NCBI GenBank assembly: GCA_963743275.1
Contig: CAVUPB010000011.1
Location: forward strand, 72,153 to 136,152
From: an uncultured Actinomycetes bacterium
Lineage (GTDB): Bacteria; Actinomycetota; Thermoleophilia; Gaiellales; JALYLC01
Direction: 5' to 3'
DNA: 64,000 bases
The translations under genes were made by a program, and so were the position numbers. The stretch's first letter is position 1; each line of letters opens with the position of its first letter. The notes under the pieces are model-generated. The model was not told the DNA's origin. It made no database searches and was given only the letters and a program-made list of their open reading frames with translations. Below are positions 3,075 through 55,876 of this stretch, piece after piece.

Positions 3075-3122
3075 GAAGCTTCTGAGACGGGGCACGGCCG
3101 GTCGCCGGAGCGGCTCGCGTGG

Positions 3123-11711: not shown

Positions 11712-12661
11712 GCGGCGCGCCGGCAGGGCGCTCCGGGGCCGACGTCGCGCTGCCCGTCGAGTCCGCCGCGAGCGGCGCCGCGCCGGCGCCGCTGGCCGCA
11801 CCGCCTGCGCATCGCGTGCCTCGCCACGAGATCCTGCGCGTCGCGTTCGGGAATCCGAAGCTGATGATCGGCGCAGGACTCGTCCTGGCGATGCTGGTGC
11901 TCGCCATCATCGGGCCGTTCCTCACGGACGAGTCGCCGCTCAGGTTCGGCGCCGACCTCGGTGTGCGCCCATCCTCCGCGCACTGGTTCGGCACGACCAC
12001 GAACGGGCAGGACGTCTTCGCGCAGTTCGTCTACGGCCTGCGGGCGAGCTTCATCGTGGGCACGCTCGGCGGCGGCCTGGCCGCGCTCATCGGCATGGCC
12101 GTGGGGTTCACCGCCGGCTACCGCGGCGGCATCGTCGACGAGATCCTCTCGATGCTCACGAACGTCGTGCTCGTCATCCCGACGCTCGCGGTCCTGATCA
12201 CGATCGCCGCCTACGTGACCACGCGCGGGTTCGTGACCGAGGCGCTCTTCATCGGGGCCACGTCGTGGCCGTGGGCCGCGCGCGCGGTGCGCGCGCAGAC
12301 GTTCTCGCTCGTCTCGCGCGACTTCATCGACATCGCGCGCCTGAGCGGGCGGCGGAGCTGGAAGATCATCGCCACCGAGATCGCGCCCAACATGGGCTCC
12401 TACCTGCTGATGATGTTCATCCTGCTCTTCGGCGGGGCGATCCTGATCGGCGCGACGCTCGACTTCATCGGCCTCGGTCCCTCGAATGCGATGTCACTCG
12501 GGCTGATGATGAACAACGCCGTGCTCTGGAGCGCGCTGCTGCTCGGCTCGTGGTGGTGGTTCATCCCGCCGGGCCTCGGCATCATCGGCATCGTCGGCGG
12601 TCTCTACGTGATGAACGTCGGGCTCGACGAGGTCTTCAACCCCAAGCTCCGGGACATGTGA
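11708..12661 (+). CDS. ABC transporter permease (DppC/OppC-like)
   Basis: GTG 11708 overlaps the upstream stop (GTGA). TM-rich sequence with DFIDIARLSGRRSWKIIATEIAPNM. The N-terminal part of ORF 10676..12661 is a shadow. Confidence 0.8.
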   Translation: MSGAPAGRSGADVALPVESAASGAAPAPLAAPPAHRVPRHEILRVAFGNPKLMIGAGLVLAMLVLAIIGPFLTDESPLRFGADLGVRPSSAHWFGTTTNGQDVFAQFVYGLRASFIVGTLGGGLAALIGMAVGFTAGYRGGIVDEILSMLTNVVLVIPTLAVLITIAAYVTTRGFVTEALFIGATSWPWAARAVRAQTFSLVSRDFIDIARLSGRRSWKIIATEIAPNMGSYLLMMFILLFGGAILIGATLDFIGLGPSNAMSLGLMMNNAVLWSALLLGSWWWFIPPGLGIIGIVGGLYVMNVGLDEVFNPKLRDM

Positions 12662-21694: not shown

Positions 21695-21735
21695 CGGTGC
21701 GCCCGGGGTCGGACCCCGGGCGCGCCGCCGGCGGC

Positions 21736-39595: not shown

Positions 39596-39717
39596 GCACG
39601 GTTGGGGTCAGACCCCAACCGTGCGGTCCGGCGTGCAAGGTCGGGGTCTGCAAGGTTGGGGTCAGACCCCGATCTTGCGGTCCGCTATGCACGGTTGGGG
39701 TCAGACCCCGGTCGTGC
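39596..39717. repeat. Palindromic repeat cluster 2 (three 29-nt units plus an orphan left arm)
   Basis: GCACGGTTGGGGTCAGACCCCAACCGTGC (39596-39624, perfect), orphan arm GCAAGGTCGGGGTC (39635-39648), and units at 39650-39678 and 39689-39717. Each unit is followed by GGTCCG. Confidence 0.9.
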
Positions 39718-39884: not shown

Positions 39885-40700
39885 TTAGCCGAGCAGCTTG
39901 AGCACGGACTGCGGAGCGCTGTTCGCCTGCGCCAGCATCGAGGTGCCGGCCGACTGCAGGATCTGCAGCTTCGTGAAGTTCACCATCTCGGCCGCCATGT
40001 CGACGTCCTTGATCTGGCTCACGGAGGCGCTCAGGTTCTCCGAGTAGTTGGCCAGGTTGGCGAGCGTGTGCTCGAGGCGGTTCTGCACGGCGCCGAAGGT
40101 CGAGCGCGCGGTCGAGATGTTGTTGATCGCGGCGTCGATCGAGGCCAGCGTCACCGTGGCGCCGAACGAGAAGAGCGCCGAGTTGACGTCGTAGGTGGCG
40201 TTGGCGCCGAACAGGTCGCGCGCCGAGACGCTGATCGTCTCGCCGTCGTTGGCACCGATCTGGAAGCTGATCGCGCCGGCGCCGGTGAGCAGCGAGATGC
40301 CGTTGAACTTCGTCTGCGAGGAGATCCGTGCGATCTCGTTGCAGAGCTGCCCGACCTCGTTCGTGATCGCGGCCTTGTCGGACGTCGACAGCGTGCCGTT
40401 GTTGTACTGCACGGCGAGGTCGCGAACGCGCTGCAGCATCGACTGCACCTCGCTCATCGAGCCCTCTGCCGTCTGCACGAGCGAGACGGCGTCCTGCGCG
40501 TTGCGCTGCGCCTGGTTGAGGCCGCCGACCTGCGACGAGAGCTTCTCGCTGATCGCGAGACCGGCGGCGTCGTCCGCCGCCTTGTTGATGCGGTAGCCCG
40601 AGCTCAGCCGAGACATCGACTGAGAGATCTTGCCCGACGTGGCGAGCAAGTTGCGATGCGCATCCATCGCATTGATGTTGGTCTGGACGCTGAGGGACAT
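39885..40700 (-). CDS. fliC: Flagellin (271 aa), copy 2, inverted relative to copy 1
   Basis: MSLSVQTNINAMDAHRNLL... By manual alignment it differs from copy 1 at about 22 of 271 residues. The 3' ~160 nt are identical at the DNA level. SD AAGGAGGAA. Confidence 0.95.
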   Translation of the reverse strand: MSLSVQTNINAMDAHRNLLATSGKISQSMSRLSSGYRINKAADDAAGLAISEKLSSQVGGLNQAQRNAQDAVSLVQTAEGSMSEVQSMLQRVRDLAVQYNNGTLSTSDKAAITNEVGQLCNEIARISSQTKFNGISLLTGAGAISFQIGANDGETISVSARDLFGANATYDVNSALFSFGATVTLASIDAAINNISTARSTFGAVQNRLEHTLANLANYSENLSASVSQIKDVDMAAEMVNFTKLQILQSAGTSMLAQANSAPQSVLKLLG

Positions 40701-40765
40701 GCTCTTCCTCCTTGAAGGGCGGTGTTCCCGTTCGGCCCACTCCCTGTGGGCCGGCCCTGGCGCCT

Positions 40766-40779
40766 CGCTATCCGTAGCG
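40766..40779 (-). promoter_or_regulatory. Candidate CsrA-binding hairpin in the fliC copy 2 leader
   Basis: CGCTA-CGGA-TAGCG presents GGA in the loop. A second GGA site lies in the SD AAGGAGGAA (about 40705-40715). Confidence 0.45.
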
Positions 40780-40797
40780 GGTACCTTGGCCGTCTTG

Positions 40798-40824
40798 TAT
40801 TCGGCAGGCAGCGCGCGGACTTTA
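40798..40824 (-). promoter_or_regulatory. Canonical sigma-28 promoter of fliC copy 2
   Basis: Minus strand TAAA-N15-GCCGAATA, followed by a 97-nt leader to the ATG. Confidence 0.75.
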
Positions 40825-41015
40825 GGAACTCCGATCAGATCTTTCTCGCGCGCTGCCACAGCGGCCACAGCGGCGCGCGGCGCGGGTCTCCGGGGGTCGG
40901 CTCGTTACGTTCTGCGCTGCTTCTGTCAATTGATCTTTGGGGACGGCGAACGCCGGCCATCCCAGCGTCGCGTCCGCTCGCACGATCGCCCGCCTACGAC
41001 CGAGGGAGGAATGCA

Positions 41016-41174
41016 ATGAGTCCGGCCGTGCGCCGCGAGGCTCCCGGAAGCCTCGCACTCGTATGCGGGTCGAGTGAGCGCCACCGCTCGCCCGAGCCGC
41101 CTGTTGGCAGGTGGGACGATCACGCGAAGCCGGGAGTCCGCACTGGCTCGCCCGCGCGCCAGGCCCGGCCGTGA
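41016..41174 (+). CDS. Possible 52-aa upstream ORF coupled to the first response regulator
   Basis: ATG preceded by GGAGGA at 5-nt spacing. Its stop overlaps GTG 41171 (GTGA). The composition is indistinguishable from noncoding GC-rich translation. Confidence 0.25.
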   Translation: MSPAVRREAPGSLALVCGSSERHRSPEPPVGRWDDHAKPGVRTGSPARQARP

Positions 41175-41794
41175 GCCAGGCCATCACGTGTCTCGTCGCC
41201 GACGACCACCCCGCAGTCCTCGCCGCCGTGTGCCGTGCGCTCGAGCAGGAGGGGGACATCGAGGTCGTCAGCCGCGTCGCCGACGGCGAGCAGGCGCTCG
41301 CGCACATCAAGGCGCGGCGGCCGACGGTCGCGCTGCTCGATGTCCGCATGCCCGGCCTCTCCGGGATCGAGGTCGCCCGCCGTCTCGAGGAGAATCACCG
41401 CACCGGAGTGATCCTCTACACCGCGTACGGCGATCCGGCGCTCGTCGTCGAGGCCCTCGACGCGGGCGTCCGCGGCTTCGTCCTCAAACAGGCCCCCGTC
41501 GAGGACCTGCTGCGCGCGATCAGGCTGGTCGCGCTGGGATCGACCTACATCGACGCCGCCGTCGCGGGCGCGCTGGCGATGTCGGAGACGGCCGGGCTCC
41601 CGGTGCTCACGAAGCGCGAGCGCGATGTCCTGCGCCTGCTCGCCGAGGGCCTGCGCAACGAGGAGATCGGCGACCGGCTGTTCATCTCTCCGTTCACGGT
41701 GCGGAACCACGTCGAGACGGTCATGGCGAAGCTCGAGGCGAACAGCCGCGCCCACGCCGTGGCGACCGCGCTGCGCCAGGCGCTCATCACGTGA
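41171..41794 (+). CDS. NarL/LuxR-family response regulator (orphan)
   Basis: Receiver domain ITCLVADDHPAVL...VALLDVRMPGLSGIEV and HTH LTKRERDVLRLLAEGLRNEEIGDRLFISPFTVRNHV. The start was chosen by homology with its neighbour. The ORF track starts at 41111. Confidence 0.9.
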   Translation: MSQAITCLVADDHPAVLAAVCRALEQEGDIEVVSRVADGEQALAHIKARRPTVALLDVRMPGLSGIEVARRLEENHRTGVILYTAYGDPALVVEALDAGVRGFVLKQAPVEDLLRAIRLVALGSTYIDAAVAGALAMSETAGLPVLTKRERDVLRLLAEGLRNEEIGDRLFISPFTVRNHVETVMAKLEANSRAHAVATALRQALIT

Positions 41795-41896
41795 CATCGG
41801 CACGCATCGGCCCGGGCGGGACTATGCTGCCCGAGGGATGGAAGCAATCGCATCCCGGCCGCCGGCGGTGACCCCCGTCAGGCCGCTTCCCCGACG

Positions 41897-42523
41897 GTGA
41901 CGACCCGTCAGATCACCTGCCTCGTCGCCGACGATCACCCCGTGATCGTGGAGGCGCTCTGTCTCCTCCTGGACGGGTGCGGCATCCCGCTGGCGGGCCG
42001 CGCCCGGCAGGGGCACGAGGCCCTGGCGAAGATCGAGACGGAGCGCCCCGCGCTGGCGATCCTCGATCTGCACATGCCGGGCCTGAGCGGCATCGAGGTC
42101 GCGCGCAACGCCGCTCGCTCCGTCCCCGAGACGGCGATCATCCTCTACACCGCCGAGGCCGAGATCGCGCTCGTCCGCGAGGCGCTCGCCGCCGGAGTGC
42201 GGGGCTTCGTGCTCAAGGGGGCGCCGCTCCCGGACATCACGCGAGCGATCGAGATGGTCGTCGGCGGCAGCGTCTACATCGACCCGGTGCTCGTCGCCGG
42301 TCTCCACCGCGACGAGCCGTCGCCGAAGGCCAAGCTGACCGCGCGCGAGCACGAGGTCCTCTTCCTGATGGCGAACGGCCTCAGCTACGACGACATGAGC
42401 AGGCAGCTGACCATCTCGCCCGAGACCGCTCGCACGCATGTGCGCAAGGCGGTCGAGAAGCTCGGCGCCCGCACGCGCCCGCACGCGCTCGCGATCGCGC
42501 TCCGCGAGTCGCTCATCTCCTGA
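41897..42523 (+). CDS. NarL/LuxR-family response regulator (orphan), a tandem paralog
   Basis: MTTRQITCLVADDHPVIVEAL...LAILDLHMPGLSGIEV and HTH LTAREHEVLFLMANGLSYDDMSRQLTISPETARTHV. Confidence 0.9.
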   Translation: MTTRQITCLVADDHPVIVEALCLLLDGCGIPLAGRARQGHEALAKIETERPALAILDLHMPGLSGIEVARNAARSVPETAIILYTAEAEIALVREALAAGVRGFVLKGAPLPDITRAIEMVVGGSVYIDPVLVAGLHRDEPSPKAKLTAREHEVLFLMANGLSYDDMSRQLTISPETARTHVRKAVEKLGARTRPHALAIALRESLIS

Positions 42524-42547
42524 GCCTGCGCGGACCGGGGCGCGCCT

Positions 42548-42573
42548 GAGAGCGCATTCGGAAATGCGCTCTC
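42548..42573 (+). terminator. Perfect 10-bp hairpin after the second response regulator
   Basis: GAGAGCGCAT-TCGGAA-ATGCGCTCTC. Its 3' end overlaps the next promoter's TCAA. Confidence 0.45.
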
Positions 42574-42598
42574 AAGACTGCGCCGAGACGGGCGACAA
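42572..42598 (+). promoter_or_regulatory. Sigma-28-like promoter spaced for a leaderless mRNA
   Basis: TCAA-N15-GGCGACAA, with 7 nt to GTG 42606. Confidence 0.4.
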
Positions 42599-42605
42599 CC
42601 TTCGC

Positions 42606-43793
42606 GTGTCGAGTCCCTTCCTCGCGCTCGCCTTCCTCGACGAGATCGCCGCCGCACCCGATCTGCTGGCCGAGTACGCGCAGCTCTTCGAAGGTCGCGG
42701 CGACGTGTCGCTCGTCGTGCTCGCGCCGGGCTTCGAGGGCGCCGATCTCGAGCGCGAGCTGCGCCCGCTCGCCGAGGCGATCGGTCTCGACCGCGACGGC
42801 AGCGCGGACGTGGTGGTCGTCACCCAGGCCGGAGCGGAGGACGAGCTCAGCGAGCGCGCGGGCGCCGTCTACACGCGCATCGCCAGGGGCGGGCGGCTCG
42901 ACGGACTGCCGCGGGCGAGCAGCGCCGGCGCGCTCGCCCGTCTCGTCGAGAGCGCTCGGGTGGACGCCGCCGGTGCGCAGGAGGGGAATCCGAGCTACCT
43001 CCTCGTCACCTACGACAGCTGCCGCCTCGACGTCCTGCAGGCGGCCCATACGCCGGTGCTCGACTCGTATGCCCGGATCGTCGCCGCGCAGACACCCGCG
43101 AACTTCACGTATGCGGCGCATCAGGCGTTCTTCGTCGGGATGCTCCCGAACGCGATCGAGCCGCTGCCGTACCACAACCGTTTCGTCAGCCAGTTGCTCG
43201 CGCTCGCAGCCGTCGGCGAGATCCAGGTCGTCGACAAGGCCTGTGCGCATCGCGTGAGCAGCGACGTCAACCTCGTCGCCGGCCTCTCCGCCGCCGGCTA
43301 TCAGACCGTCGGCGCCGGTGCGATGAACTGGTTCAAGCAGAAGGCGCTGACCCAGTGGTTCGAGAACTTCGCCTACACCGGCACCGACGCGCGCGCCCAG
43401 ATCGACTTCCTCCGGCGCGAGATCGACCCGCGCCGTCCGTTCTTCGGCTTCGTCAACTTCGGCGAGACCCATGACCCGTTCGACTTCGAGGGCAAGCCGG
43501 ACCGGTGCCCGATCGAGGTGCAGTCGCGTCTGATCGAGTGGCCGCCGGTGCAGAACGGCGTGCCGGTCGGCCGCGACTCCGAGGCCTGGGCGCACCAGCG
43601 GCGCTCCGCCGAGTTCCTCGACGCGCAGCTGCCGGCGCTGTTCGAAGGGCTCCCGGGCCACACGATCGTGATCCTCTGCGGCGACCATGGCGAGGCCTTC
43701 GGCGAGGACGGCTACTGGGGCCACGGCGTCAACCATCCCACCGTGCTGACCGTGCCGCTCGCGATCTTCCGGCTCGACCGCGCGCCGCTGTAG
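42606..43793 (+). CDS. Alkaline-phosphatase/sulfatase-superfamily enzyme with an N-terminal ~95-aa module shared with the 21770 methyltransferase
   Basis: N-terminal PFLALAFLDEIAAAPDLLAEYAQLFEGRGDVSLVVLAPG...GLDRDGSADVVVVT. Catalytic part YLLVTYDSCRLDVL...TPANFTYAAHQAFFVG...VILCGDHGEAFGEDGYWGHG (sulfatase-like metal and nucleophile motifs). Confidence 0.7.
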   Translation: MSSPFLALAFLDEIAAAPDLLAEYAQLFEGRGDVSLVVLAPGFEGADLERELRPLAEAIGLDRDGSADVVVVTQAGAEDELSERAGAVYTRIARGGRLDGLPRASSAGALARLVESARVDAAGAQEGNPSYLLVTYDSCRLDVLQAAHTPVLDSYARIVAAQTPANFTYAAHQAFFVGMLPNAIEPLPYHNRFVSQLLALAAVGEIQVVDKACAHRVSSDVNLVAGLSAAGYQTVGAGAMNWFKQKALTQWFENFAYTGTDARAQIDFLRREIDPRRPFFGFVNFGETHDPFDFEGKPDRCPIEVQSRLIEWPPVQNGVPVGRDSEAWAHQRRSAEFLDAQLPALFEGLPGHTIVILCGDHGEAFGEDGYWGHGVNHPTVLTVPLAIFRLDRAPL

Positions 43794-43802
43794 CCCCCGC
43801 AC

Positions 43803-43831
43803 GCAAAAACGGGGTCTGACCCCATCTTTGC
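43803..43831. repeat. Palindromic repeat unit (cluster 3)
   Basis: GCAAAAACGGGGTCTGACCCCATCTTTGC, with imperfect arms and the same GGGGTC-W-GACCCC core. Confidence 0.8.
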
Positions 43832-43923
43832 GCGGCCCTAAAGAGCCCCCGGCGGAGGCCGACTACGTGGGCGTCCCCGGGCCGCGTGGCGGCCGCGTCC
43901 GCATTCGAGAGGACATTCCTCCG

Positions 43924-46900
43924 TTGACTGTGCCGATCGTCTCTGCCCCCTTCGCCGGCCTCGACGAGATCGCCGAGCCGTATGCGCTCCTGCTCGCGCC
44001 CGGCGCCGAGGTGAGCGCCGAGGCGATCGCGGAGCTGCGGGCGACGCTCGACGCGAATCCCGCCGCGGGCCTCGTCGGGGCCCGGCTCGCCGGGCCCGAC
44101 GGCCTGCTCCGGCAGGCCGGCGGCATCGTCGCGAGCGACGGCTCGATCTGGAGCTACGGCCACGGCCGGCAGGGCGACGACCCGCGCTACCTGCACGCGC
44201 GGGAGGTCGACTGGGTCTCGACGGACTGCGCGCTCGTGCGCGTCGCCGCGCTGCGCGCCGCCGGGGGCTTCGATCCCGCGCTCGCCGGCGAGGAGCGCGA
44301 CGCCGATCTCGCGTTCGCCCTGCGCCGGGCCGGCTATGCGGTCGTCTACCAGCCGTTCGCCGAGGCGGTCGTCCACGACCAGGCCGCCGAGACCGCCGAC
44401 GCCGCGGCCACCTGCGAGCTCAGCGTCATCATGCCGACCCACGATCGGGCGGAGCTGCTGCGCGACGCGCTCGAGAGCCTCGTGGGCCAGAGCGTCGCGC
44501 GCGACCGCTTCGAGGTCGTCGTCGTCGACGACGGCTCGACCGACGGCACCGAGCAGGTCTGCGCCGAGCTCTCCGAGCGGCTCGACCTCCGCTACGTCCG
44601 GATCGCGAGCTCGGGCATCGCCGCGGCCAAGAATGCCGGCATTCGCGCGGCGCGCGGCGCCATCCTGCTGTTCCTGGACGACGACGACGTGGCCGATCCG
44701 GGCCTGCTCGCGGAGCACCTCCGCGTGCACGCCGAGCGGCCCGAGGAGCACGTCGCGGTGCTCGGCTACACGACGTGGGGCGACTGGCTCGACGTGACGC
44801 CGCTCATGCACTTCGTGACCGACGTCGGCCACTACCTGTTCGCCTACAGCGACCTCGAAGACGGCCAGTCGCTGGACCACACCTACTTCTGGGGCGGCCG
44901 GAGCTCGTGCAAGCGCTCGTTCCTCCTGCGGCGCGGGCTCTTCAACCCGGCCTTCACGTTCGGCTCGGAGGACATCGAGCTCGGCTACCGGCTCTCCCGC
45001 TACGGACTCGAGGTCGTCTACGCCGCCGGCGCGATCAGCCGGATGAACCGGTCCGTCACGCTCGACGAGTTCTGCCGGCGCGTCGAGCGCCAGGGCCGTT
45101 CGCAGCTCGTCTTCTCGCGCCTGCACGCCGACCCCGGCGTCCAGACGTGGTGCGGCGTGGAGGCCGCCGCGGAGCGCTGGGCTGCGGTCGCGGCGGATCT
45201 CGACGCCCGTCTCGCTCGCGCCCGCGAGATCGAGGGTGCGCGCAGCGAGGAGTTCCACGCGCTGCTGTGGGGCATCTTCGACGCGCTGAAGCTGAAGGGG
45301 ATCGCCGAGGCTGCGAGCGAGGACGAGCAGGTCGCGCGGCCCGCGGCGCTGCGCCACGAGGCGCCGGGTGCCGCGCTGCGCGCCAAGTGGGCCGAGGAGC
45401 TGCGCGCGCAGACGGCGCCCGAGCACGAGCTGATGCGGGCGGCCGCCAACCGCGCGCCCGGCAGCCGGATCTTCGTCGCCGATCTGCTGCTCCCCGCCTA
45501 CACGCGCGCCTCCGGTGCGCGACGGATGTTCGAGTTGCTGCGCCTGCTCGCCGCCGCGGGTCACGCCGTCACGTTCGTCGCCGCCGACCCCTCCGACGGG
45601 CCGCGCTTCGTCGACGAGCTGCGCCGGCTGGGGATCGAGACCTACGCCGGCGACCCCGAGCGGGCGCTGCTGCTCGGGCGCTCCGTCGAGGCGCCGCACC
45701 TCGATCTCGGCGAGCTCCTGGCCGGGAGCGACTTCGATCTCGCGCTGCTCAGCCTGTGGTACGTGGCCGAGCGCTACCTCGAGCCCGTGCGGCGCTACGC
45801 GCCACGGGCGCGGATCGTGGTCGACACGGTCGACGTGCACTACGTCCGCGAGCAGCGCCATGCCGAGCTCGTGGGCGACCCGCTGCTCGCGCGCGGGGCA
45901 GCCGAGACGCGCCTGCGCGAGCTCGGCGTCTACGCGCAGGCCGACGCGCTCGTCGCCGTCACCGACAACGATGCCGACGGGATCCGCGCCGCGCTTCCCG
46001 AGGCCGAGATCCACATCGTCGGGAACATCCACGACGTCGCCGAGGCGTCGCCCGGGCCGGCGGGGCGCCAGGGCCTGCTCTTCGTCGGCAACTTCCTGCA
46101 TCGCCCGAACCCCGACGCGGTGATCTGGCTGCAGCGCGAGGTCATGCCGCTCGTCTGGGACGAGGAGCCGGATGCGACGCTGACGATCGCCGGGTTCCGG
46201 CCGACGGCCGAGGTACGGGAGCTCGCCGGCCCGCGCGTCGACGTCGTCGGCCACGTGCCCGACATGCAGCCGCTGCTCGACGCGCACCGCATCTCGGTCG
46301 CACCGCTGCGCTTCGGCGCAGGGATCAAGGGCAAGGTGTGCGAGGCGCTCGCGGCGGGACTCCCCGTGGTCACCACCGGCGTCGGGAGCGAGGGGATGGG
46401 CCTCGCCGAGGGCCACGACGTGCTGCTCGAGGCCGACGACGCGGAGGCGTTCGCCGCCGCCATCCTGCGGCTGCTCCGCGACGACGCGCTGTGGGCGCGG
46501 CTTGCCGCCGGCGGCCGTGCCTATGTCGAGCAGCAGCTCAGCTCGCAGGCGGCCGCGAAGCGGCTCGAGCGGCTGGTCGAGAGCGAGCGGGCCCGCAAGG
46601 CCGACGCGGAGCTGACATCGATCGTCGTGCTCGCGCTCGACAACGCCGAGCTGACCGGCGAGTGCCTCGACTCGATCGCCGCGCACACCGCCGAGCCCTA
46701 CGAGATCGTGCTCGTCGACAACGGCTCGGGCCCGGAGGCCGCGGATCTCTTCGCGCGCTGGGCGCGCGAGCGCGACGACCTGCGCGTGGTGCGCAACGCG
46801 GTCAACCTCGGCTTCGCCGGCGGCAACAACCAGGGACTCGCCCTCGCCCGCGGTGGCGCCGTCGTGCTGCTCAACAACGACACCGTCGTCACCGACGGCT

Positions 46901-49836
46901 GGCTCGGGCGCATGCGCGCGGTGCTCGAGCGCGAGGCCGGCGTCGGAATCGTCGGCCCGGTCACGAATCGGATCTCGGGCCCGCAACAGGTCGACGACGC
47001 CGTCTACGAGACCCCGCAGGAGCTTCACGCGTACGCGGCGGAGCGAGCGCTCGCACATGCCGGCCAGACCGCCGAGACGCTGCGCGTCGTCGGGTTCTGC
47101 ATGCTGATCAGGCGCGAGGTCGTCGATTGCATCGGCGGGCTCGACGAGCGCTTCGGCGCCGGCAACTTCGAGGACGACGACTTCTCCCTGCGCGCCGCGG
47201 CCCTGGGGTTCGGGGCCCGGATCGCGCTCGACGCGTTCGTCCACCACGCCGGCAGCCAGACGTTCGCCGCGGCGGGCATCGACCACCACCAGGCGATGCT
47301 GCGCAACTGGACGCTCTTCAAGGAGAAGTGGTCGATCCCGGCGGCGACGTCGATCGCCGAGCCCTACGCCGTCTCGCGTGAGACGGTGCTGGCCCGCTCG
47401 TGCGTCGTGCCGCTGCCCGCGATCGGGCGCTTCCACCGGCCCGAGGGGAACCTCTGGCGCGAGGCCGACGACAGTCGCGTCCTCGCCGCGGCCGCCGATG
47501 CGATCGAGGTCGGCCGCGTCGAGGCGCTCGCCGATGCCTTCGCCGAGGCCGCGCGATGGCTCGACCCGCACCGCCGCTACCAGACCCGCCGCCGCCTCGC
47601 CGAGCTGGTGCTCGACGCGCCCAAGCGGGGCGAGAGCGACTGGATGACGCTGTTCGCCGCCGGCGCGGAGGAGCTGACCGCCGTGCTCGAGGAGGAGCCG
47701 CGCGAGCCGATCCTGCTGAACTATCTCGGCGTCCTCCTCTACGAGCTCGGTGACCTGCGCACCGCGGAGTCCCTGTTCCGGGCTGCGTTCCGGCTCGACC
47801 CGGCGCTCGGACAGGCCCGGGAGAACCTCGAGGCCGCACGGCGGCTGCGCCGCGCGCACACGCTCGGCGCCCCGCGCGGCGCGTTGGCCGCGCGGGTGCG
47901 GGCGCTCGCGCCGCGCGCGCGTCGCCTGGCGGCTGCGGCGAGGCCGGTGGAGGGGTTGACGGTGTCGCTGTGCATGATCGTGAAGGACGAGGAGGAGTTG
48001 TTGCCGGCCTGTCTGGAGGCGGCGCGGGGTGCGGTCGACGAGATCGTGGTGGTCGATACGGGTTCGTCGGATCGCACGGTGGAGATCGCGGAGTCGTTTG
48101 GTGCGAAGGTCGTGTCGTTTCCGTGGAACGGGTCGTTTGCGGATGCGCGGAATGTCTCGATCGAGCATGCGACGGGCGATTGGATCATGTATCTGGACGC
48201 CGACGAGCAGCTTGCTGCGGGCTCGGCCGCAGAGTTGCGCTCGCTGCTCGGCAAGACCTGGCGCGAGGCCTTCAATCTCGTCGAGACGAACTTCACCGGC
48301 GGCGAGGGATCGGGGGAGTCGGTCGCCCACCTCGCGCTGCGCGTCTGGCGCAACCGGCCGGAGTACCGCTTCGCGGGCCGCATCCACGAGCAGAAGACGC
48401 AGTCGATGCCGAACTACCTGCCCGAGCGGTTCGAGACCACGACCGTGCAGATCTCCCACTACGGCTACCTCAAGAGCCGGATCTCGGCGAAGGAGAAGTC
48501 GCAGCGCAACATCGAGCTGCTCGAGGCGCAGGTCGAGGAGCGGGGGCTGAACGCCTTCTCCGCGCTCAACCTCGGCACCGAGTGGATGCTCGTCGGCGAG
48601 CAGGCGAAGGCGCGGGAGTACCTGGAGCAGTCGTGGACGATGCTGCGACGGCAGCCGGCGTGGCAGCGCCAGCCATGGGCCCCGATGCTGCTCTCGCGGC
48701 TCGCGACCGTCCGCCGCGAGCTCGGCGACCTCGCGGGCGTGCGCGCCCTCGTCGCCGAGGGCCTCGCGATCTATCCGGATCACACCGACCTCGTCTTCAA
48801 GCTCGCGCTCTGCGCCGTCGACGAGCGCGACTGGGCGGGCGCCGAGGTGCATGCCCGCCGCTGCCTCGCGCTCGGAGATGCGCCCGCCGCCTATTCGGGC
48901 AACGTCGGCGGCGGAACGTACCTCGCAATGGCGCTGCTCGGCCAGCTGAGCGAGGTCCAGGGGCGCCTCGACGAGGCCGAGGCGCACTACCGCCAGGCGC
49001 TCGCGGCGCATCCCTCGTTCGTCGCGCCCGCGCTGCCGCTCGCGACGCTCATGTTCCGCCGCGGCGCGGCGCCGGCCGAGGTCGAGGCGGCGCTGCCGGC
49101 CGGCCGGACGAGCGCGCTCCTGCTCGCGGCGAGCGCCTGCTTCGAGGCCGGCCATGCCCCCGAGGCGGCGGCGTGGTTCGCCCGCGTGCTCGACGAGCAG
49201 CCCGAAAACGGCGCCGCGCGCGTCGGGCTCGTCGAGTCCCTGCTCGCCGAGCGCCGCTACGACGAGGCGGTCGCCGAGGCGCGCCTGCGGGGCGACGGCT
49301 CGGCCGTCGCCACGAAGCTCGCCGCCGCCGAGCTCTTCATCCACGGGCTGCGGGCCGACGCGGCAGCGCTCGGAGCCGCACTCGAGACGTTCGACGGGAC
49401 CGTGCCCGAGGCCGCGCTCTTCGGCGCCTGGCACGGCCTGCTCGCCGGCGCTCCCGTACCCGATGTGCTGCCGGCAGAGCTGTTCGGCACGGTCGTCACG
49501 ATGCTCGAGGCGCTCCTGCGCGTCTCGGAGTTCCAGGCCTTCGAGACCCTGCACGGGCTGTTCACGCGCATCGACGTCGCTCCCGCGCTGCGCTCCGACG
49601 TCCTCGCGACGGTCTACTTCCGGCGCGGCTATCTGGATTCGGCGGCGGACGAATGGATCGCCTCGGTCGAGGCGGAGCCGAGCGCCGGCGCGCTGCTCGG
49701 CCTCGCGCACGTCGCGCTCGCCAAGGACCTGCCCGACGACGCCGCCGTGCTGCTGGACGAGGCGCTGGAGCTCGAGCCCGGCAACACGGACGCCTCGGCC
49801 CTGCGCGACGCGCTCGCCGACAAGGTGGCGGCGTGA
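43924..49836 (+). CDS. Giant multidomain glycosyltransferase (about 1970-2000 aa): GT-A fragment, GT2, GT4/GT1, GT2, helical linker, GT2 and a TPR-like tail
   Basis: LSVIMPTHDR...VVVDDGSTDGT...LFLDDDD (GT2). FVGNF...GIKGKVCEALAAGLPVVTT (GT4). SIVVLALDN...VLVDNGS...LLNNDTVV...GNFEDDD (GT2). SLCMIVKDEEELLP...VVVDTGSSD...MYLDADE (GT2). The start is uncertain: the ORF track gives 43828 inside the repeat, with TTG 43924 or GTG 43930 preferred. Confidence 0.8.
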   Translation: MTVPIVSAPFAGLDEIAEPYALLLAPGAEVSAEAIAELRATLDANPAAGLVGARLAGPDGLLRQAGGIVASDGSIWSYGHGRQGDDPRYLHAREVDWVSTDCALVRVAALRAAGGFDPALAGEERDADLAFALRRAGYAVVYQPFAEAVVHDQAAETADAAATCELSVIMPTHDRAELLRDALESLVGQSVARDRFEVVVVDDGSTDGTEQVCAELSERLDLRYVRIASSGIAAAKNAGIRAARGAILLFLDDDDVADPGLLAEHLRVHAERPEEHVAVLGYTTWGDWLDVTPLMHFVTDVGHYLFAYSDLEDGQSLDHTYFWGGRSSCKRSFLLRRGLFNPAFTFGSEDIELGYRLSRYGLEVVYAAGAISRMNRSVTLDEFCRRVERQGRSQLVFSRLHADPGVQTWCGVEAAAERWAAVAADLDARLARAREIEGARSEEFHALLWGIFDALKLKGIAEAASEDEQVARPAALRHEAPGAALRAKWAEELRAQTAPEHELMRAAANRAPGSRIFVADLLLPAYTRASGARRMFELLRLLAAAGHAVTFVAADPSDGPRFVDELRRLGIETYAGDPERALLLGRSVEAPHLDLGELLAGSDFDLALLSLWYVAERYLEPVRRYAPRARIVVDTVDVHYVREQRHAELVGDPLLARGAAETRLRELGVYAQADALVAVTDNDADGIRAALPEAEIHIVGNIHDVAEASPGPAGRQGLLFVGNFLHRPNPDAVIWLQREVMPLVWDEEPDATLTIAGFRPTAEVRELAGPRVDVVGHVPDMQPLLDAHRISVAPLRFGAGIKGKVCEALAAGLPVVTTGVGSEGMGLAEGHDVLLEADDAEAFAAAILRLLRDDALWARLAAGGRAYVEQQLSSQAAAKRLERLVESERARKADAELTSIVVLALDNAELTGECLDSIAAHTAEPYEIVLVDNGSGPEAADLFARWARERDDLRVVRNAVNLGFAGGNNQGLALARGGAVVLLNNDTVVTDGWLGRMRAVLEREAGVGIVGPVTNRISGPQQVDDAVYETPQELHAYAAERALAHAGQTAETLRVVGFCMLIRREVVDCIGGLDERFGAGNFEDDDFSLRAAALGFGARIALDAFVHHAGSQTFAAAGIDHHQAMLRNWTLFKEKWSIPAATSIAEPYAVSRETVLARSCVVPLPAIGRFHRPEGNLWREADDSRVLAAAADAIEVGRVEALADAFAEAARWLDPHRRYQTRRRLAELVLDAPKRGESDWMTLFAAGAEELTAVLEEEPREPILLNYLGVLLYELGDLRTAESLFRAAFRLDPALGQARENLEAARRLRRAHTLGAPRGALAARVRALAPRARRLAAAARPVEGLTVSLCMIVKDEEELLPACLEAARGAVDEIVVVDTGSSDRTVEIAESFGAKVVSFPWNGSFADARNVSIEHATGDWIMYLDADEQLAAGSAAELRSLLGKTWREAFNLVETNFTGGEGSGESVAHLALRVWRNRPEYRFAGRIHEQKTQSMPNYLPERFETTTVQISHYGYLKSRISAKEKSQRNIELLEAQVEERGLNAFSALNLGTEWMLVGEQAKAREYLEQSWTMLRRQPAWQRQPWAPMLLSRLATVRRELGDLAGVRALVAEGLAIYPDHTDLVFKLALCAVDERDWAGAEVHARRCLALGDAPAAYSGNVGGGTYLAMALLGQLSEVQGRLDEAEAHYRQALAAHPSFVAPALPLATLMFRRGAAPAEVEAALPAGRTSALLLAASACFEAGHAPEAAAWFARVLDEQPENGAARVGLVESLLAERRYDEAVAEARLRGDGSAVATKLAAAELFIHGLRADAAALGAALETFDGTVPEAALFGAWHGLLAGAPVPDVLPAELFGTVVTMLEALLRVSEFQAFETLHGLFTRIDVAPALRSDVLATVYFRRGYLDSAADEWIASVEAEPSAGALLGLAHVALAKDLPDDAAVLLDEALELEPGNTDASALRDALADKVAA
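47920..48273 (+). repeat. 354-bp block 100% identical to 51219-51572 (copy 1)
   Basis: Out-of-frame ORFs 47970.. and 51269.. (and 48029.. and 51328..) start with identical peptides at a constant offset of 3299 nt. The 5' boundary is sharp. Confidence 0.9.
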
Positions 49837-52800
49837 GCCTGCGCGTCGTCTCCGTCCTGCCCGGCGCGGAAGCGCAGGCGACCGGGCGGGAGAGCATCGC
49901 GGAGCCGCTCGTCTCCATCGCGATCCTGACGCTGAACGGCAGCGAGCACACGCGCGCGTGCCTCGAGAGCATCGAGCGCTCGACGGCGGAGCCGTACGAG
50001 CTGCTGCTCGTCGACAACGGCTCCAGCGACGGCACGGTCGAGCTCCTGCGCGACTACGCGGCGACGCGCTCGCACGTCCGGCTGGTGCTGAACGGCGCGA
50101 ACCGCGGCTTCGCGGGCGGCAACAACCAGGCGCTCGCGCTCGCGCGCGGCGAGTACGTCGTCCTGCTCAACAACGACACGATCGTCACGGACGGCTGGCT
50201 CGGGCGGCTCATCGGCGCGCTCGAGAGGACGCCGGGCGCGGGCCTCGCCGGTCCCGTGTCCAACTACGTCGCCGGGCCACAGCTCGTCGAGGCCGGCTAC
50301 GCGAGCGTCGGCGAGGTCGCGCCGTTCGCACGCGCCTGGGCCCGCGCCCACGCCGGCGCGGTCGAGCCCGTTGCCCGTCTGATCGGCTTCTGCCTGCTGC
50401 TCCGGCGTGAGGTGGTCGAGGCGGTCGGCGCGCTCGACGAGTCCTTCGGCGCCGGCAACTTCGAGGACGACGACCTCTGCCTGCGCGCTCGCGCGGCGGG
50501 CTTCGGCTGCGTGATCGCGCGCGATGCGTTCGTCCATCACACGGGCAGCCAGACGTTCATCGGCGAGCGGATCGACTACGGCGCCAGCCTCGTGCGCAAC
50601 CGCATGGTCTTCGAGCGGAAGTGGGGGTGCTCGCTCGACGCCCTCTGGGATCGCGGCCTGGCCGCAGTCGAGCCGGAGCGGCTCGAGCGCCTGCGCCACC
50701 TGCCGCTGCCCGCGCACTCGCTGCCGGAGTCGCAGGCGGGCGCCGCCGGCGATCAGCTGCGCGGCGAGCTCCGCGTCGAGGATCTTCTCGTGCGCGCCCG
50801 CGCCGCGGTGCTCGGGCACGACCTCCGGGCCGTGCGCGAGCGCTTCGCCGAGCCCGCCGGCTGGGACGAGGAGCAGCGTGCCTACCAGGCGGTGCGCCAC
50901 CTGACCGAGCTCGTGCTCGCGACCGGGGCGGCGATCCGCGACGAGGGCTGGATCGACCTCTACGTCGCGGCTGCCGAGGGCCTGCTCGGGGTGCTCGAAC
51001 GGGAGCCGTCCGAGCCGGTGCTGCTCAACTTCGCCGGGATCCTGCTCTACGAGCTGACCGAGCTCGAGTCCGCCGCCGCGCTCTTCGAGGCGGCGCTCCG
51101 GCTCGACCCGTCGCTCGACGAGACGGCCGGGAACCTCGCTGCGGCCCGTGACCTGCTCGCGCGCGAGGACCGGCCGCGTCTCGCGCACTACGGGCTCGCC
51201 GCCCTCGCCGACCTCGGCCGTCGCCTGGCGGCTGCGGCGAGGCCGGTGGAGGGGTTGACGGTGTCGCTGTGCATGATCGTGAAGGACGAGGAGGAGTTGT
51301 TGCCGGCCTGTCTGGAGGCGGCGCGGGGTGCGGTCGACGAGATCGTGGTGGTCGATACGGGTTCGTCGGATCGCACGGTGGAGATCGCGGAGTCGTTTGG
51401 TGCGAAGGTCGTGTCGTTTCCGTGGAACGGGTCGTTTGCGGATGCGCGGAATGTCTCGATCGAGCATGCGACGGGCGATTGGATCATGTATCTGGACGCC
51501 GACGAGCAGCTTGCTGCGGGCTCGGCCGCAGAGTTGCGCTCGCTGCTCGGCAAGACCTGGCGCGAGGCCTTCTACCTCGTCGAGACGAACCACACGGGCG
51601 GGGACGAGGCGGGGACGGCGGTCGCCCACCCGGCGATGCGCATCTTCCGCAACCGCCCCGAGTACCGCTTCGAGGGCCGCATCCACGAGCAGAAGTCGCG
51701 GCTGATGCCGACGTTCCTGCCGGAGCGGTTCGAGACCACGACCGTCCGGGTCGAGCACTTCGGCTACCTCAAGAGCCGGGTCGTCGGCCGCGACAAGTCC
51801 CGGCGCAACCTCGAGCTGCTCGCGCGCGAGGTGGAGGAGTCGCCCAGCCCGTTCGCGTCGTTCAACCTGGGCTCCGAGTATCAGATGCTGAGCGACTGGC
51901 AGCGCGCCGCCGGCCACTTCGACGACGCCTGGCGCGAGCTGCGCCGCGAGGGCGAGTGGCACACGGCGGGCTTCGCGCCGATGCTCGCCGCGCGCACCGC
52001 CCGCGCCCACCGCGAGTGCGGGCGGATCGAGAAGGCGCGCGACGTGCTCGCCGAGGCGGTCGCGCTGATGCCCGACTACACCGACCTCCACTTCGAGCTC
52101 GCGCTCTGCGCGCAGGCGACGGGCGAGCGGGCCGAGGCCGAGCGGCTGCTCCGGCACTGCCTCGAGATCGGAGACGCACCGCCGCGCTACGCGGCGACGG
52201 TCGGCACGGGCTCGCATCTCGCGCTCGGCGTCCTCGCCGAGCTGGCCGAGGCGCGCGGCGACGATGCCGAGGCGATCGCCCTCTACCGGCGCGGCCTCGA
52301 GCTGCGGCCCGCCTTCACGGCGACCGTGCTGCCGCTCGCGAAGCTCCTGCTCGAGAACGGCTCGACCCCCGCCGAGCTGTCCCGCGAGCTCCCGCTCGAA
52401 CGTCCGTCGGCGGCGCTGCTGACGGCGACCGCCTACCTCGAGAGCGGCCACGCGCAGGCGGCCGAAGAGCTCTTCCGGCAGGTGCTCGCCCGCCGTCCGG
52501 GAACGCCTGCGGCACGCATGGGCGTGCTGCAGGCGCTGCTCGGCCAGCGCCGCTACGCCGAGGCCGCCGCGGAGGCCGCGAGCGAGACGGCCGAGGCGGA
52601 GACCGCGTCGCTCGCCGCCTCCACGGGCATGTTCGCGTGCGCGGCGCTCGGCGCCCCGGCGCTGCTCGCCACGGCGATCGAGCGCGCGGAGCGGCTCGCT
52701 GTCGCAGACGGCGAGCTCGAGTTCTACCGGGGGTGGGAGGCGGCTCTCGGCGGTGCACCGCTCGGCTCCCTGCCCGCGTCGGCGCTCGAGCCCGCGCTCG

Positions 52801-53156
52801 GCGCGCTCGAGGCGCTGCTCCGCGTGCGCGAGTTCGACGCGTTCGGGCGGCTGGTCTCCGTGTACGAGTGCATCGATGCTCCGCTCGAGGAGCGCCGGGA
52901 ACGACTCGCCCAGCTCTACCTGCGCAGCGGCTACGCGGACTCGGCCGAGGACGAGTGGCGCCGCGGTGCGCTCGACGCGGATTCGCTCGTCGGGCTCGCC
53001 CAGGTCGCGCTCGTGCGCGAGCAGCCCGGCGAGGCGGCCGCGCTCGCAGGCAAGGCGCTCGACCTCGACCCGGCCTCGAAGACGGCCCGCAAGCTCGTGT
53101 CGGTTTTGACCCGATCGGGGGATACGGCCTCAATCTTGGGCTCGACAGGTCGATGA
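49833..53156 (+). CDS. Multidomain glycosyltransferase (1107 aa): GT2, helical linker, GT2 and a TPR-like tail. It is a paralog of the C-terminal half of the previous gene.
   Basis: GTG overlaps the upstream stop (GTGA). VSIAILTLNG...LLVDNGSSDGT...LLNNDTIV...GNFEDDD, then SLCMIVKDEEELLP...VVVDTGSSD...MYLDADE, and a TPR-like C-terminus. Confidence 0.85.
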   Translation: MSLRVVSVLPGAEAQATGRESIAEPLVSIAILTLNGSEHTRACLESIERSTAEPYELLLVDNGSSDGTVELLRDYAATRSHVRLVLNGANRGFAGGNNQALALARGEYVVLLNNDTIVTDGWLGRLIGALERTPGAGLAGPVSNYVAGPQLVEAGYASVGEVAPFARAWARAHAGAVEPVARLIGFCLLLRREVVEAVGALDESFGAGNFEDDDLCLRARAAGFGCVIARDAFVHHTGSQTFIGERIDYGASLVRNRMVFERKWGCSLDALWDRGLAAVEPERLERLRHLPLPAHSLPESQAGAAGDQLRGELRVEDLLVRARAAVLGHDLRAVRERFAEPAGWDEEQRAYQAVRHLTELVLATGAAIRDEGWIDLYVAAAEGLLGVLEREPSEPVLLNFAGILLYELTELESAAALFEAALRLDPSLDETAGNLAAARDLLAREDRPRLAHYGLAALADLGRRLAAAARPVEGLTVSLCMIVKDEEELLPACLEAARGAVDEIVVVDTGSSDRTVEIAESFGAKVVSFPWNGSFADARNVSIEHATGDWIMYLDADEQLAAGSAAELRSLLGKTWREAFYLVETNHTGGDEAGTAVAHPAMRIFRNRPEYRFEGRIHEQKSRLMPTFLPERFETTTVRVEHFGYLKSRVVGRDKSRRNLELLAREVEESPSPFASFNLGSEYQMLSDWQRAAGHFDDAWRELRREGEWHTAGFAPMLAARTARAHRECGRIEKARDVLAEAVALMPDYTDLHFELALCAQATGERAEAERLLRHCLEIGDAPPRYAATVGTGSHLALGVLAELAEARGDDAEAIALYRRGLELRPAFTATVLPLAKLLLENGSTPAELSRELPLERPSAALLTATAYLESGHAQAAEELFRQVLARRPGTPAARMGVLQALLGQRRYAEAAAEAASETAEAETASLAASTGMFACAALGAPALLATAIERAERLAVADGELEFYRGWEAALGGAPLGSLPASALEPALGALEALLRVREFDAFGRLVSVYECIDAPLEERRERLAQLYLRSGYADSAEDEWRRGALDADSLVGLAQVALVREQPGEAAALAGKALDLDPASKTARKLVSVLTRSGDTASILGSTGR
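51219..51572 (+). repeat. 354-bp block 100% identical to 47920-48273 (copy 2)
   Basis: As for copy 1. It encodes RRLAAAARPVEGLTVSLCMIVKDEEELLP...LLGKTWREAF in both genes. Confidence 0.9.
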
Positions 53157-53207: not shown

Positions 53208-53561
53208 ATGACGAAGACAGGACCCACAGACGCTGCGCCGGGAGCTGCCACCGTCGATCGGCTGGTCGACGCCGCCGAGAACGCGCAGGCGGCCTTCCTC
53301 GCGCCCTCCCATCTCGCGATCGGCGCGGCGCCGCCGCCGGCGCTCCTGTGCGCGCTCGACCGGGCGGCGCAGGTCGTCGCCGACCTCGACGCGCGCCGGC
53401 TCAGCCTGCGCTTCGAGGCGGGCGCGGACAGCCGGGTCCAGGCGCAGGTCATCGATGCCGACGGGAACGTGCTGCGGCGGCTGCCGGTCGGGCAGGCGCT
53501 CGAGCTGCTGAACGGGCGCGGCTCGTGGCGCGAGCGCGGATTGGGCGCGGGGTCGCAATGA
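53208..53561 (+). CDS. flaG: FlaG-like flagellar protein
   Basis: 117 aa immediately upstream of fliD. LSLRFEAGADSRVQAQVIDADGNVLRRLPVGQALELL fits the FlaG pattern. Confidence 0.65.
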   Translation: MTKTGPTDAAPGAATVDRLVDAAENAQAAFLAPSHLAIGAAPPPALLCALDRAAQVVADLDARRLSLRFEAGADSRVQAQVIDADGNVLRRLPVGQALELLNGRGSWRERGLGAGSQ

Positions 53562-54967
53562 CCCTCAGCGTCGCGAGCCAGAGCATCAGCGGCCTCGCCT
53601 CGGGGCTCGACACGGCCTCGATCATCAGCTCGCTGATGACGATCGAGCAGCGCCCGCAGGCTCGCATCCAGCAGAAGCTGGTCGTCGAGCAGGCGCGCCA
53701 GGCGGCGCTCAAGGACGTGCTCTCGCAGCTGGGCGCCCTCAAGGCCGCCTATCAGGGGGTCACCGATCCGGCGGCCTGGGCCGACGTGCAGACCGTCAGC
53801 TCGACCGACGACGCGCATCTGTCGGCCACGCGCACGGCCGGCGCGGCCGCCGGCGCCTATGCCGTCGCGATCTCGCAGCTCGCGCGCGCCAACCAGTACA
53901 CGGCCTCCGGTGCGACCACGGCCGCCGCCGACGACGTCATCCACCTCACCGTCGCGGGCACGACCAGCGACGTCGCGATCGCCGCGGGCGACACGCTCGA
54001 TGCGATCGCAGCGAAGATCCAGGGCGTCGGCAACTCGCCCGTGTACGCCTCGGTGGTCGGCGGGCAGCTCGTGATCTCCGACCGCGCCACGGGGGCGGCG
54101 GCGAGCATCTCGTCGATCACGACCAACGGCACGTCCGGACTCTCGTTCGCCGAGACGCGCACGGCGCAGGATGCGGCCTTCACGGTCGACGGCGTCGCCC
54201 ACACGAGCGGCTCGAACGTGGTGACCGATGCGATCGCCGGGCTGACGCTGACGCTGAAGGGCCAGACGACCGCGCCGGCGACGATCAGCGTCGGCGCGCC
54301 GGCGGTCGACAGCACCGCGCTCCAGCAGAAGATGACGGCGTTCGTCACGCAGTACAACACGACGATCGGCTCCATCCTCGACAAGCTCAACGAGCCCGTG
54401 GTCGCGTCGCCGCAGAACGACGCCGACCGCGCCAAGGGCGTCCTCAACGGCGACAGCTCGCTCCAGGCGCTGCTCTCGAGCGTCCGCAACGCCTTCAGCG
54501 ACCTCGTCTCCGGCCGGCCTCCGGGGCTGCAGTCGATGGCGCAGGTCGGCATCTCGACCGGCGCGACGACCGGCGCGGGCTCGCTGAACGCCGACGCGAT
54601 CGACGGCAAGCTCGTCTTCGACTCGGGCCGCTTCGCGACCGCGATGGCGAGCGATCTGAACGGCGTCAAGGCGCTCTTCACGAACCCGACCGGCAGCTAC
54701 GCCAGCGAGGGGCTCGCGCAGCGCCTCAACCGCATCCTCACGCCGTGGACCGCCGGCAGCGCCTCGAACGGCCTGCTCAACACACGGATCGACGGCGAGT
54801 CCGCGACGATCACCTCGCTGCAGGCCGACGCTGCCGCGTGGACGCCGCGGCTCGCGCTCAAGGAGCAGATGCTCAAGGCGCAGTTCGCGGCGATGGAGAC
54901 GGCGCTCTCGCAGGCGCAGTCCCAGAGCCAGTGGCTCGACGGCCAGCTCGCCCAGCTCGGCAAGTAG
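53558..54967 (+). CDS. fliD: Flagellar filament cap protein FliD
   Basis: ATGA overlap with flaG. ISGLASGLDTASIISSLMTIEQRPQARIQQK and C-terminal LKEQMLKAQFAAMETALSQAQSQSQWL. Confidence 0.9.
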   Translation: MTLSVASQSISGLASGLDTASIISSLMTIEQRPQARIQQKLVVEQARQAALKDVLSQLGALKAAYQGVTDPAAWADVQTVSSTDDAHLSATRTAGAAAGAYAVAISQLARANQYTASGATTAAADDVIHLTVAGTTSDVAIAAGDTLDAIAAKIQGVGNSPVYASVVGGQLVISDRATGAAASISSITTNGTSGLSFAETRTAQDAAFTVDGVAHTSGSNVVTDAIAGLTLTLKGQTTAPATISVGAPAVDSTALQQKMTAFVTQYNTTIGSILDKLNEPVVASPQNDADRAKGVLNGDSSLQALLSSVRNAFSDLVSGRPPGLQSMAQVGISTGATTGAGSLNADAIDGKLVFDSGRFATAMASDLNGVKALFTNPTGSYASEGLAQRLNRILTPWTAGSASNGLLNTRIDGESATITSLQADAAAWTPRLALKEQMLKAQFAAMETALSQAQSQSQWLDGQLAQLGK

Positions 54968-55737: not shown

Positions 55738-55750
55738 AGCCGGCGGCCAC

Positions 55751-55847
55751 GCAACGTCGGGGTCAGACCCCGACGTTGCGCAATGCACGATTGGGGTCAG
55801 ACCCCAATCGTGCGGACCGCAAAGTTGGGGTCAGACCCCAATGTTGC
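55751..55847. repeat. Palindromic repeat cluster 4 (three 29-nt units)
   Basis: GCAACGTCGGGGTCAGACCCCGACGTTGC (55751-55779, perfect), GCACGATTGGGGTCAGACCCCAATCGTGC (55785-55813, perfect) and GCAAAGTTGGGGTCAGACCCCAATGTTGC (55819-55847). Confidence 0.9.
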
Positions 55848-55876
55848 GGACCCGACTCGGCATCACCCGGATGGTC

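Follow-up and report, generated by a model that had tools for sequence, protein, structure and literature searches.

Probable recent gene conversion, confined to one half of a GT2 domain, between tandem glycosyltransferase genes of an uncultured Gaiellales bacterium

How can two neighbouring genes that agree at little more than 60% of their nucleotides share a stretch of 354 nucleotides (nt) in which not a single base differs? This question is raised by a locus of an uncultured actinobacterium of the order Gaiellales (class Thermoleophilia) on contig CAVUPB010000011.1 of the assembly GCA_963743275.1, of which 64,000 nt (positions 72,153 to 136,152 of the forward strand, termed the window in the following) were analysed. 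The two genes, here called gene 1 and gene 2, stand in tandem within a flagellar gene cluster and encode large proteins with several glycosyltransferase domains, gene 2 and the 3.3 kb at the C-terminal end of gene 1 being paralogous (72% nucleotide identity with gaps over 2.7 kb, blastn). The identity of the two blocks at a constant offset of 3299 nt, which had been reported in an initial annotation of this DNA, is exact base for base. The offset leaves a remainder of 2 when divided by 3, and both copies are in frame with their own gene. A third copy of the block was not found in the window by blastn.

The most probable answer, to which a probability of roughly 0.88 is assigned, is a very recent gene conversion between the tandem paralogs, representing the latest episode of a long-running concerted evolution that is confined to this part of the genes. 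Outside the block, gene 1 and gene 2 share 61.8% of their nucleotides, 46% of their amino acids and 65.8% of their synonymous third positions, and the codon alignment between gene 2 and the corresponding C-terminal region of gene 1 contains no further exact match longer than 31 nt. The probability that all 113 degenerate codons of the block agree by chance amounts to about 3e-21. The flanks had been described as unrelated upstream and roughly 80% similar downstream. The former applies only to the linker of about 90 nt just upstream of the block, the genes being homologous over the 2.7 kb mentioned above; the latter is a fair description, with 72% identity over 300 nt and 66-92% per 50 nt in the first 250 nt.

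According to Pfam, the GT2 domain which contains the block is the third one in gene 1 and the second one in gene 2, as had been proposed. The order of domains is GT2, GT4/GT1, GT2, TPR, GmaR-like GT2 and TPR in the product of gene 1, and GT2, TPR, GmaR-like GT2 and TPR in that of gene 2, with TPR_2, TPR_19, TPR_16 and related families following the GmaR-like GT2 domain in both proteins. This block-bearing domain is matched by PF00535 and PF13704 and resembles the catalytic domain of GmaR (PDB 22ao; E = 4.3e-34, query residues 14-206), whose IDADE is aligned to LDADE of the query. On the GmaR structure, the block spans residues 10-112, i.e., the N-terminal half of the fold, and ends just past the DxD motif.

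The evidence which carries the proposed conversion comes from related loci. One of these, L083 (GCA_035696365.1), is fully syntenic and features both genes, here termed oA (gene 1) and oB (gene 2). Parts of the pair are present in the others, namely the end of gene 1 and a complete gene 2 in L084/L085 (JGI 3300036773; GCA_036502805.1 contig 24, DASXXY010000024.1), gene 1 up to the block in L168 (contig 72 of GCA_036502805.1, DASXXY010000072.1) and in L167 (GCA_033856635.1, JAWVEQ010000085.1), and gene 2 in L086 (JGI 3300077774). Identity matrices comprised eight sequences from five assemblies. Scans of genome and metagenome contigs provided at least 160 further loci, the closest JGI contigs being absent from the metagenome loci listed. 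The closest named proteins originate from Gaiellales metagenome-assembled genomes (MAGs).

In the identity matrices, the sequences are grouped by genome inside the block and by gene type downstream of it. Over block positions 16-122, gene 1 and gene 2 of the same genome are 100% identical in the window, 100% in GCA_036502805.1 (L168 vs L085) and 90.7% in L083, where 91.9% is reached over positions 16-300; between genomes, identity over positions 16-122 is 74-94%. In the 300 nt downstream, the gene-1 sequences are 89-94% identical to each other and the gene-2 sequences 84-89%, at about 67-73% between the two types. A corresponding pattern emerges when the genes of the window are compared with their orthologs in L083. 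Gene 1, which is 83% identical to oA, shows a flank identity to it of 85-97%, with 93-97% directly 3' of the block, in contrast to 76-82% inside the block, and synonymous identity falls from about 0.7-0.85 in the flanks to 0.37-0.58. The same drop inside the block was observed for gene 2 and oB. This contrast between flanks and block means that the block departs from the expectation of vertical descent in both genes of the window.

Further evidence is provided by GCA_036502805.1. Its gene-1 contig consists of unique upstream sequence followed by 108 nt which exactly match the gene-2 block of the same genome, whereupon the contig ends; the continuation contig begins at about block position 306. 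Compared with the window, the tract of this genome has its left end about 14 nt further in and its right end at least 49 nt earlier. Such variation of the tract ends between genomes argues for a homology-driven and not a site-specific process. The recent conversion between tandem paralogs that had been suggested for this locus is thus not only supported but can be extended, as the tract has been homogenised in at least two other related genomes as well, which supports a recurrent process rather than a single event. In L083, a sister Gaiellales MAG, the segments 8088-8441 and 11387-11740 are 88% identical over 354 nt and 71% identical downstream, which shows an older conversion of the same tract. 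Both genes of L083 share substitutions there, e.g., GSTDAT where the window features GSSDRT, and their codon usage is normal.

The identical tract is a mosaic, composed of a core with atypical codons and a 3' end of the gene-1 type. Its last approximately 45 nt (..ELRSLLGKTWREAF) agree with oA and with the piece of gene 1 with which L084/L085 begin, and no gene-2 ortholog matches them; identity of the window in block positions 301-354 amounts to 83% with oA vs 70-74% with the gene-2 orthologs. The atypical core type, for its part, is shared by gene-2 orthologs and by the gene-1 fragments which two relatives retain. As a single non-reciprocal event leaves its donor unchanged, the mosaic tract points to at least two events in opposite directions. 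A history in which the core is alien to both genes and the conversion ran from gene 1 to gene 2, as L083 alone would suggest, is ruled out by L084-L086, according to which the core is native to the gene-2 orthologs and only the 3' end is of the gene-1 type.

The unusual codons of the block had been noticed before, and a codon-usage calculation identified the block as the strongest in-gene outlier of the window. Its third positions are G in a fraction of 0.59 (G3), C in 0.25 (C3), T in 0.15 (T3) and A in 0.01 (A3), compared with window means of 0.42, 0.53, 0.035 and 0.018, respectively (948 sliding windows of 118 codons). An index similar to the codon adaptation index reaches 0.50 in the block vs 0.77 +/- 0.09 in the window, and lower values than that of the block were obtained only at the 5' ends of stop-to-stop open reading frames (ORFs), which probably include non-coding sequence. 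All of the rare codons listed in the initial annotation are found in the block, with TTG and GAT occurring four times each, GGT and TTT three times each, and TGT, AAT, CAT, TAT and CTT once each. In the core, G is the third base of the four-fold degenerate codons and T that of roughly half of the two-fold pyrimidine codons, with A3 close to 0; GC content decreases to 63% in the block, GC skew rises to +0.33 and AT skew is -0.27. An extension of the atypical usage to about 40 nt upstream of position 47920 in gene 1 was considered and rejected, as this segment is an ordinary linker of the gene-1 type with 79% identity to L167.

The same deviation recurs in relatives. G3, C3 and T3 are 0.59, 0.28 and 0.12 in the gene-2 block of L084/L085 and 0.53, 0.35 and 0.10 in that of L086, and G3 is 0.80 and 0.75 in the gene-1 block fragments of L167 and L168, all with normal flanks. 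L083 and about 45 other Thermoleophilia orthologs show normal usage in the block. The atypical blocks of the relatives are 86-91% identical to that of the window and hence about as diverged as the flanks; the three gene-2 orthologs show synonymous identities of 0.64-0.96 in the block, which does not depart from the range of the whole gene, and synonymous singletons per codon number 0.21 in the block vs 0.22-0.24 elsewhere. Since the carriers differ in the block as much as in the flanks, the atypical allele is old relative to the split of the lineages and under no special constraint at the nucleotide level. Judged by these alignments, the atypical usage predates the recent conversion and belongs to an allele class common to several related Gaiellales lineages.

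With regard to the origin of this allele, comparison with orthologs revealed a replacement of final C in the block, by G in four-fold codons and by T in two-fold codons. This combination favours a foreign codon preference over a single mutational spectrum, and on balance the atypical core is perhaps best explained by an old import through recombination, its source being a homolog from an organism that prefers other codons. Among the matches listed (168 loci), no locus with more than 77% nucleotide identity to the block was found apart from the syntenic Gaiellales loci, and none of the genome and metagenome loci listed features the atypical usage, the syntenic Gaiellales loci from protein look-ups excepted. 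Phage collections yielded no match to the block and viral contigs no 20-mer match, and the plasmid collection contained only a weak match, i.e., 72% over 131 nt to a glycosyltransferase of a Planctomyces plasmid. The 118 amino acids of the block taken alone had no close protein match but only short fragments, many of them from frameshift-ridden long contigs. The prevalence of short "proteins" among these matches is due to the long ENA contigs L001 and L002 (207 kb and 185 kb), which carry split genes: their gene calls are short and fragmented, the gene with GT2 and TPR domains appearing in pieces of 138-214 amino acids, and this fragmentation resembles the indel errors of long-read assembly.

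Alternatively, the codon bias could have arisen in place by local strand-asymmetric mutation, for instance through damage or error-prone synthesis during repeated recombinational repair. This would concern the origin of the bias only, and it would agree with the strand asymmetry expressed in the GC and AT skews, with the coincidence of bias and repeatedly recombining tract, and with the fact that no donor was found. Nevertheless, it is unlikely: no single mutational spectrum fits both kinds of codon replacement, the tract of L083 was also converted and yet retains normal codons, and the singletons in the block are without a strong directional bias (12 towards C, 8 away).

The recurrence of conversion at nearly the same place could be explained as follows. 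The protein would be most strongly conserved in the segment encoded by the tract, namely the half of the GmaR-like GT2 domain which binds the nucleotide sugar, and the tract would therefore offer the best substrate for RecA-type pairing between genes which are otherwise only about 62-72% identical. Once homogenised, it would remain a recombination substrate, with the extension of the heteroduplex being halted by the diverged flanks; a persistent substrate between diverged flanks would in turn cause conversion to recur there in different lineages. The atypical allele may have entered an ancestor by homologous recombination, to be carried along afterwards and copied between both genes. A more far-reaching interpretation holds that the half-domain is an exchangeable module, whose foreign allele is kept identical in both enzymes by selection, e.g., for a shared new donor sugar, and which may move between Gaiellales lineages. 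This is unlikely; if true, the conversion hotspot would represent a switch of flagellin glycan chemistry and not a passive by-product of homology.

In two related MAGs, short-read contigs have an end or a beginning within the block, which bears out the warning that the region is prone to misassembly. Contig edges fall inside the block in three related assemblies, at the end of L167 (7835-7984), the end of L168 (13991-14112) and the start of L084/L085 (1-49), and gene 1 is split or truncated there and annotated as 'partial'. It has thus to be considered whether the identity itself results from collapse, duplication or polishing with multi-mapped or foreign reads, as the source is a metagenome-derived contig of 174,744 bp and the repeat does break the contigs of relatives at this place. 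Such an artefact is very improbable. Contigs breaking at the block in relatives is the behaviour of a repeat, and consequently argues for a real repeat in this group of organisms. In addition, reading frames and domain continuity are intact in both copies, the block joins the native sequence of the gene-1 type seamlessly, and the same atypical class is present in at least three independent assemblies from other samples. In the second MAG (GCA_036502805.1), reads bridge the unique sequence upstream in gene 1 and the 108 nt identical to its gene-2 block, and polishing would not be expected to recruit foreign reads with about 78% identity.

Very improbable as well is a scenario in which gene 1 and gene 2 each independently acquired the same foreign or mobile cassette. 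The initial annotation had raised the option of a foreign cassette in both, for which the atypical composition and the sharp left edge of the identity could be adduced. The gene-2 blocks of the relatives are orthologous, equally atypical and diverged from each other to the same extent as their flanks, and the block has been seen only at orthologous positions of homologous genes, in which homologous codons are replaced one for one. Moreover, the last part of the tract is native gene-1 sequence, its ends differ by genome, the edges of the block feature neither terminal inverted nor direct repeats, and a link to mobile elements is missing, given the phage, viral and plasmid results described above. 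The cassette is therefore not supported in this form; a foreign origin of the codon pattern is likely, as an old import into one gene that was later spread by conversion.

Equally remote is purifying selection at the nucleotide level in the absence of conversion, with an RNA or DNA element inside the block, or a programmed series of rare codons, as its object: the odd composition does persist in several lineages with no obvious drift towards host usage, but synonymous singletons and synonymous identity in the block follow the gene-wide values given above, Rfam yielded nothing for positions 47500-52000 at E <= 1, shuffled sequences fold equally well as RNA (z = -0.20) and the bias is missing in L083 and the other orthologs with normal usage. 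A diversity-generating retroelement was rejected on account of zero differences between the copies, where differences at template adenines would be expected; a reverse transcriptase gene was not searched for.

Several points weigh against the interpretation as recurrent conversion of an imported allele. The identity of gene 1 and gene 2 in two relatives is visible only over the 108-150 nt that were kept by the contigs, and polishing could have erased a few real differences, by which "100%" would become "nearly 100%" without affecting the conclusion. The direction and number of events are deduced from a handful of diagnostic sites. A donor of the atypical core is lacking in the collections searched, its foreign import being what we infer from the codons. 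Finally, the atypical block is missing from L083, although the flanks of this locus are at least as close to the window as those of the loci that do carry it; this leaves either a replacement of the block in L083 or a spread of the allele between lineages.

The coordinates of the features are compiled in Table 1. The ORF of gene 1 is open from a TTG at 43828, i.e., 5' of the called start, and its stop codon is overlapped by the GTG start of gene 2 (GTGA). The cluster comprises, in this order, the flagellin gene, two genes for LuxR-type response regulators, a sulfatase-like gene, gene 1, gene 2, an ORF of 117 amino acids, fliD, fliS and fliT, and L083, L167 and L168 show synteny in the flagellar genes around the pair. 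Considering this setting and the domains of the encoded proteins, gene 1 and gene 2 are candidate flagellin glycosyltransferases.

Table 1. Positions of the identical tract, its components and the genes of the locus within the window.
Feature	Coordinates	Strand	Description	Basis
Identical tract, gene 1 copy	47920..48273	+	residues RRLAAAARPVEGL...TWREAF; GmaR-like GT2 domain, N-terminal half including the DxD motif (LDADE)	
Identical tract, gene 2 copy	51219..51572	+		exact comparison, blastn 100%
Atypical-codon core, copy 1	47956..48216	+	first TTG to CTT GCT; limits approximate	four- and six-way alignments, codon counts, sliding windows
Atypical-codon core, copy 2	51255..51515	+	orthologous to the equally atypical cores of L084/L085 (~3067-3327) and L086 (~1462-1722)	
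Diagnostic nucleotides of the gene-1 type	48238..48258	+	CGC TCG CTG CTC GGC AAG ACC (..RSLLGKT..), 3' end of the tract; same bases in gene 2 at 51537-51557	
Gene 1	43867..49836	+	1989 amino acids as called	translation, Pfam; identical to database protein P0241
Gene 2	49833..53156	+	1107 amino acids	translation, Pfam; 100% match to P0121
Flagellin gene	39885..40904	-		Pfam Flagellin_N and Flagellin_C
fliD	53558..54967	+	followed by fliS, fliT, flgB, flgC, fliE, fliF and further flagellar genes	Pfam, synteny with L083

Some further observations were made in the surroundings of the two genes. The flagellin gene, the two response regulator genes and the sulfatase-like gene (39885-43793 in the window) are kept directly upstream of the glycosyltransferase pair in L083, L167 and L168. 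At 27 bits, the window's sulfatase match is a weak one, and a role in the modification of the flagellin glycan would be speculation. The ORF of 117 amino acids between gene 2 and fliD (53208-53561) is without a Pfam match, and a gene of 112-116 amino acids is found at the same position in L083, L084, L086 and the contig carrying P0122. Furthermore, a family of REP-like palindromic hairpins with the core GGGGTCAGACCCC has 10 sites in the window vs 0.15 expected. The 13-nt core is located at 21705, 22832, 22896, 39604, 39658, 39697, 43811, 55759, 55793 and 55827. There are two clusters of three hairpins, one close to the 3' end of the flagellin gene (39604-39709) and the other, whose units are palindromes of 27-31 nt, between fliT and flgB (55750-55848); one copy of the core precedes the called start of gene 1 by about 45 nt. 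Six related loci (L083, L168, L006, L087, L089 and L142) also contain the core.

Outside the Gaiellales, many of the Paenibacillus and other Bacillota loci (L047-L060, L064-L066 and L068) feature two to four GmaR-like GT2 modules within about 5-12 kb. In L064, three GmaR-like GT2 copies are nearly equal in their identity to the query (57.6-58.6%, tblastn), which may indicate a similar homogenisation.

For the analysis of uncultured soil actinobacteria, the locus indicates that gene conversion can homogenise one sub-domain of diverged multi-domain paralogs, repeatedly and in several lineages of one order. In practical terms, the repeat disrupts short-read MAG assemblies at this locus and distorts phylogenies or ortholog assignments based on this GT2 domain. 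Likewise, the codon anomaly is not to be taken as a recent horizontal transfer. If the swap of a half-domain alters donor-sugar specificity, the process would moreover have a bearing on the diversification of flagellin glycans.

Regarding their possible function, the proteins can be compared with GmaR of Listeria monocytogenes, a flagellin O-GlcNAc transferase with GT2 and TPR domains that acts as anti-repressor of MogR (PMC9638930, PMC3150276; PDB 22ao/22ap). Proteins combining GT2 and TPR domains in flagellar glycosylation islands are considered candidate flagellin glycosyltransferases (PMC13317340). The match to the GT2 catalytic domain, the TPR region C-terminal to it and the flagellar locus are shared with GmaR, whereas in the present proteins (1107 and 1989 amino acids) additional GT2 and GT4 domains precede the GmaR-like module, to which they are fused, and the module occurs twice in tandem genes. 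The atypical core also recalls mosaic genes which received segments from diverged donors, in that a short internal segment is deviant, synonymous divergence from orthologs is in excess and the flanks are native; in contrast to these, the segment was afterwards copied into an adjacent paralog.

As a process, the case is closest to the concerted evolution of duplicated bacterial genes by conversion, which is described for tufA/tufB of Salmonella, rRNA operons and RF1/RF2 (PMC5485169, PMC8022953, PMC4530459). Experimentally obtained bacterial conversion tracts are contiguous and blocked by sequence divergence (PMC5485169). In common with the examples named, a contiguous tract is homogenised, probably in a non-reciprocal manner, between paralogs of the same chromosome, paralogs are closer within a genome than orthologs between genomes, and divergence of the flanks limits the tracts. 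Unlike tufA/tufB and similar pairs, only a sub-domain of about 300-350 bp is affected here, in genes which are otherwise about 62-72% identical at the nucleotide level, and the homogenised allele features a codon usage foreign to the genome. The locus accordingly represents a sub-domain-restricted concerted evolution in tandem paralogs, a process of a kind that is already known.

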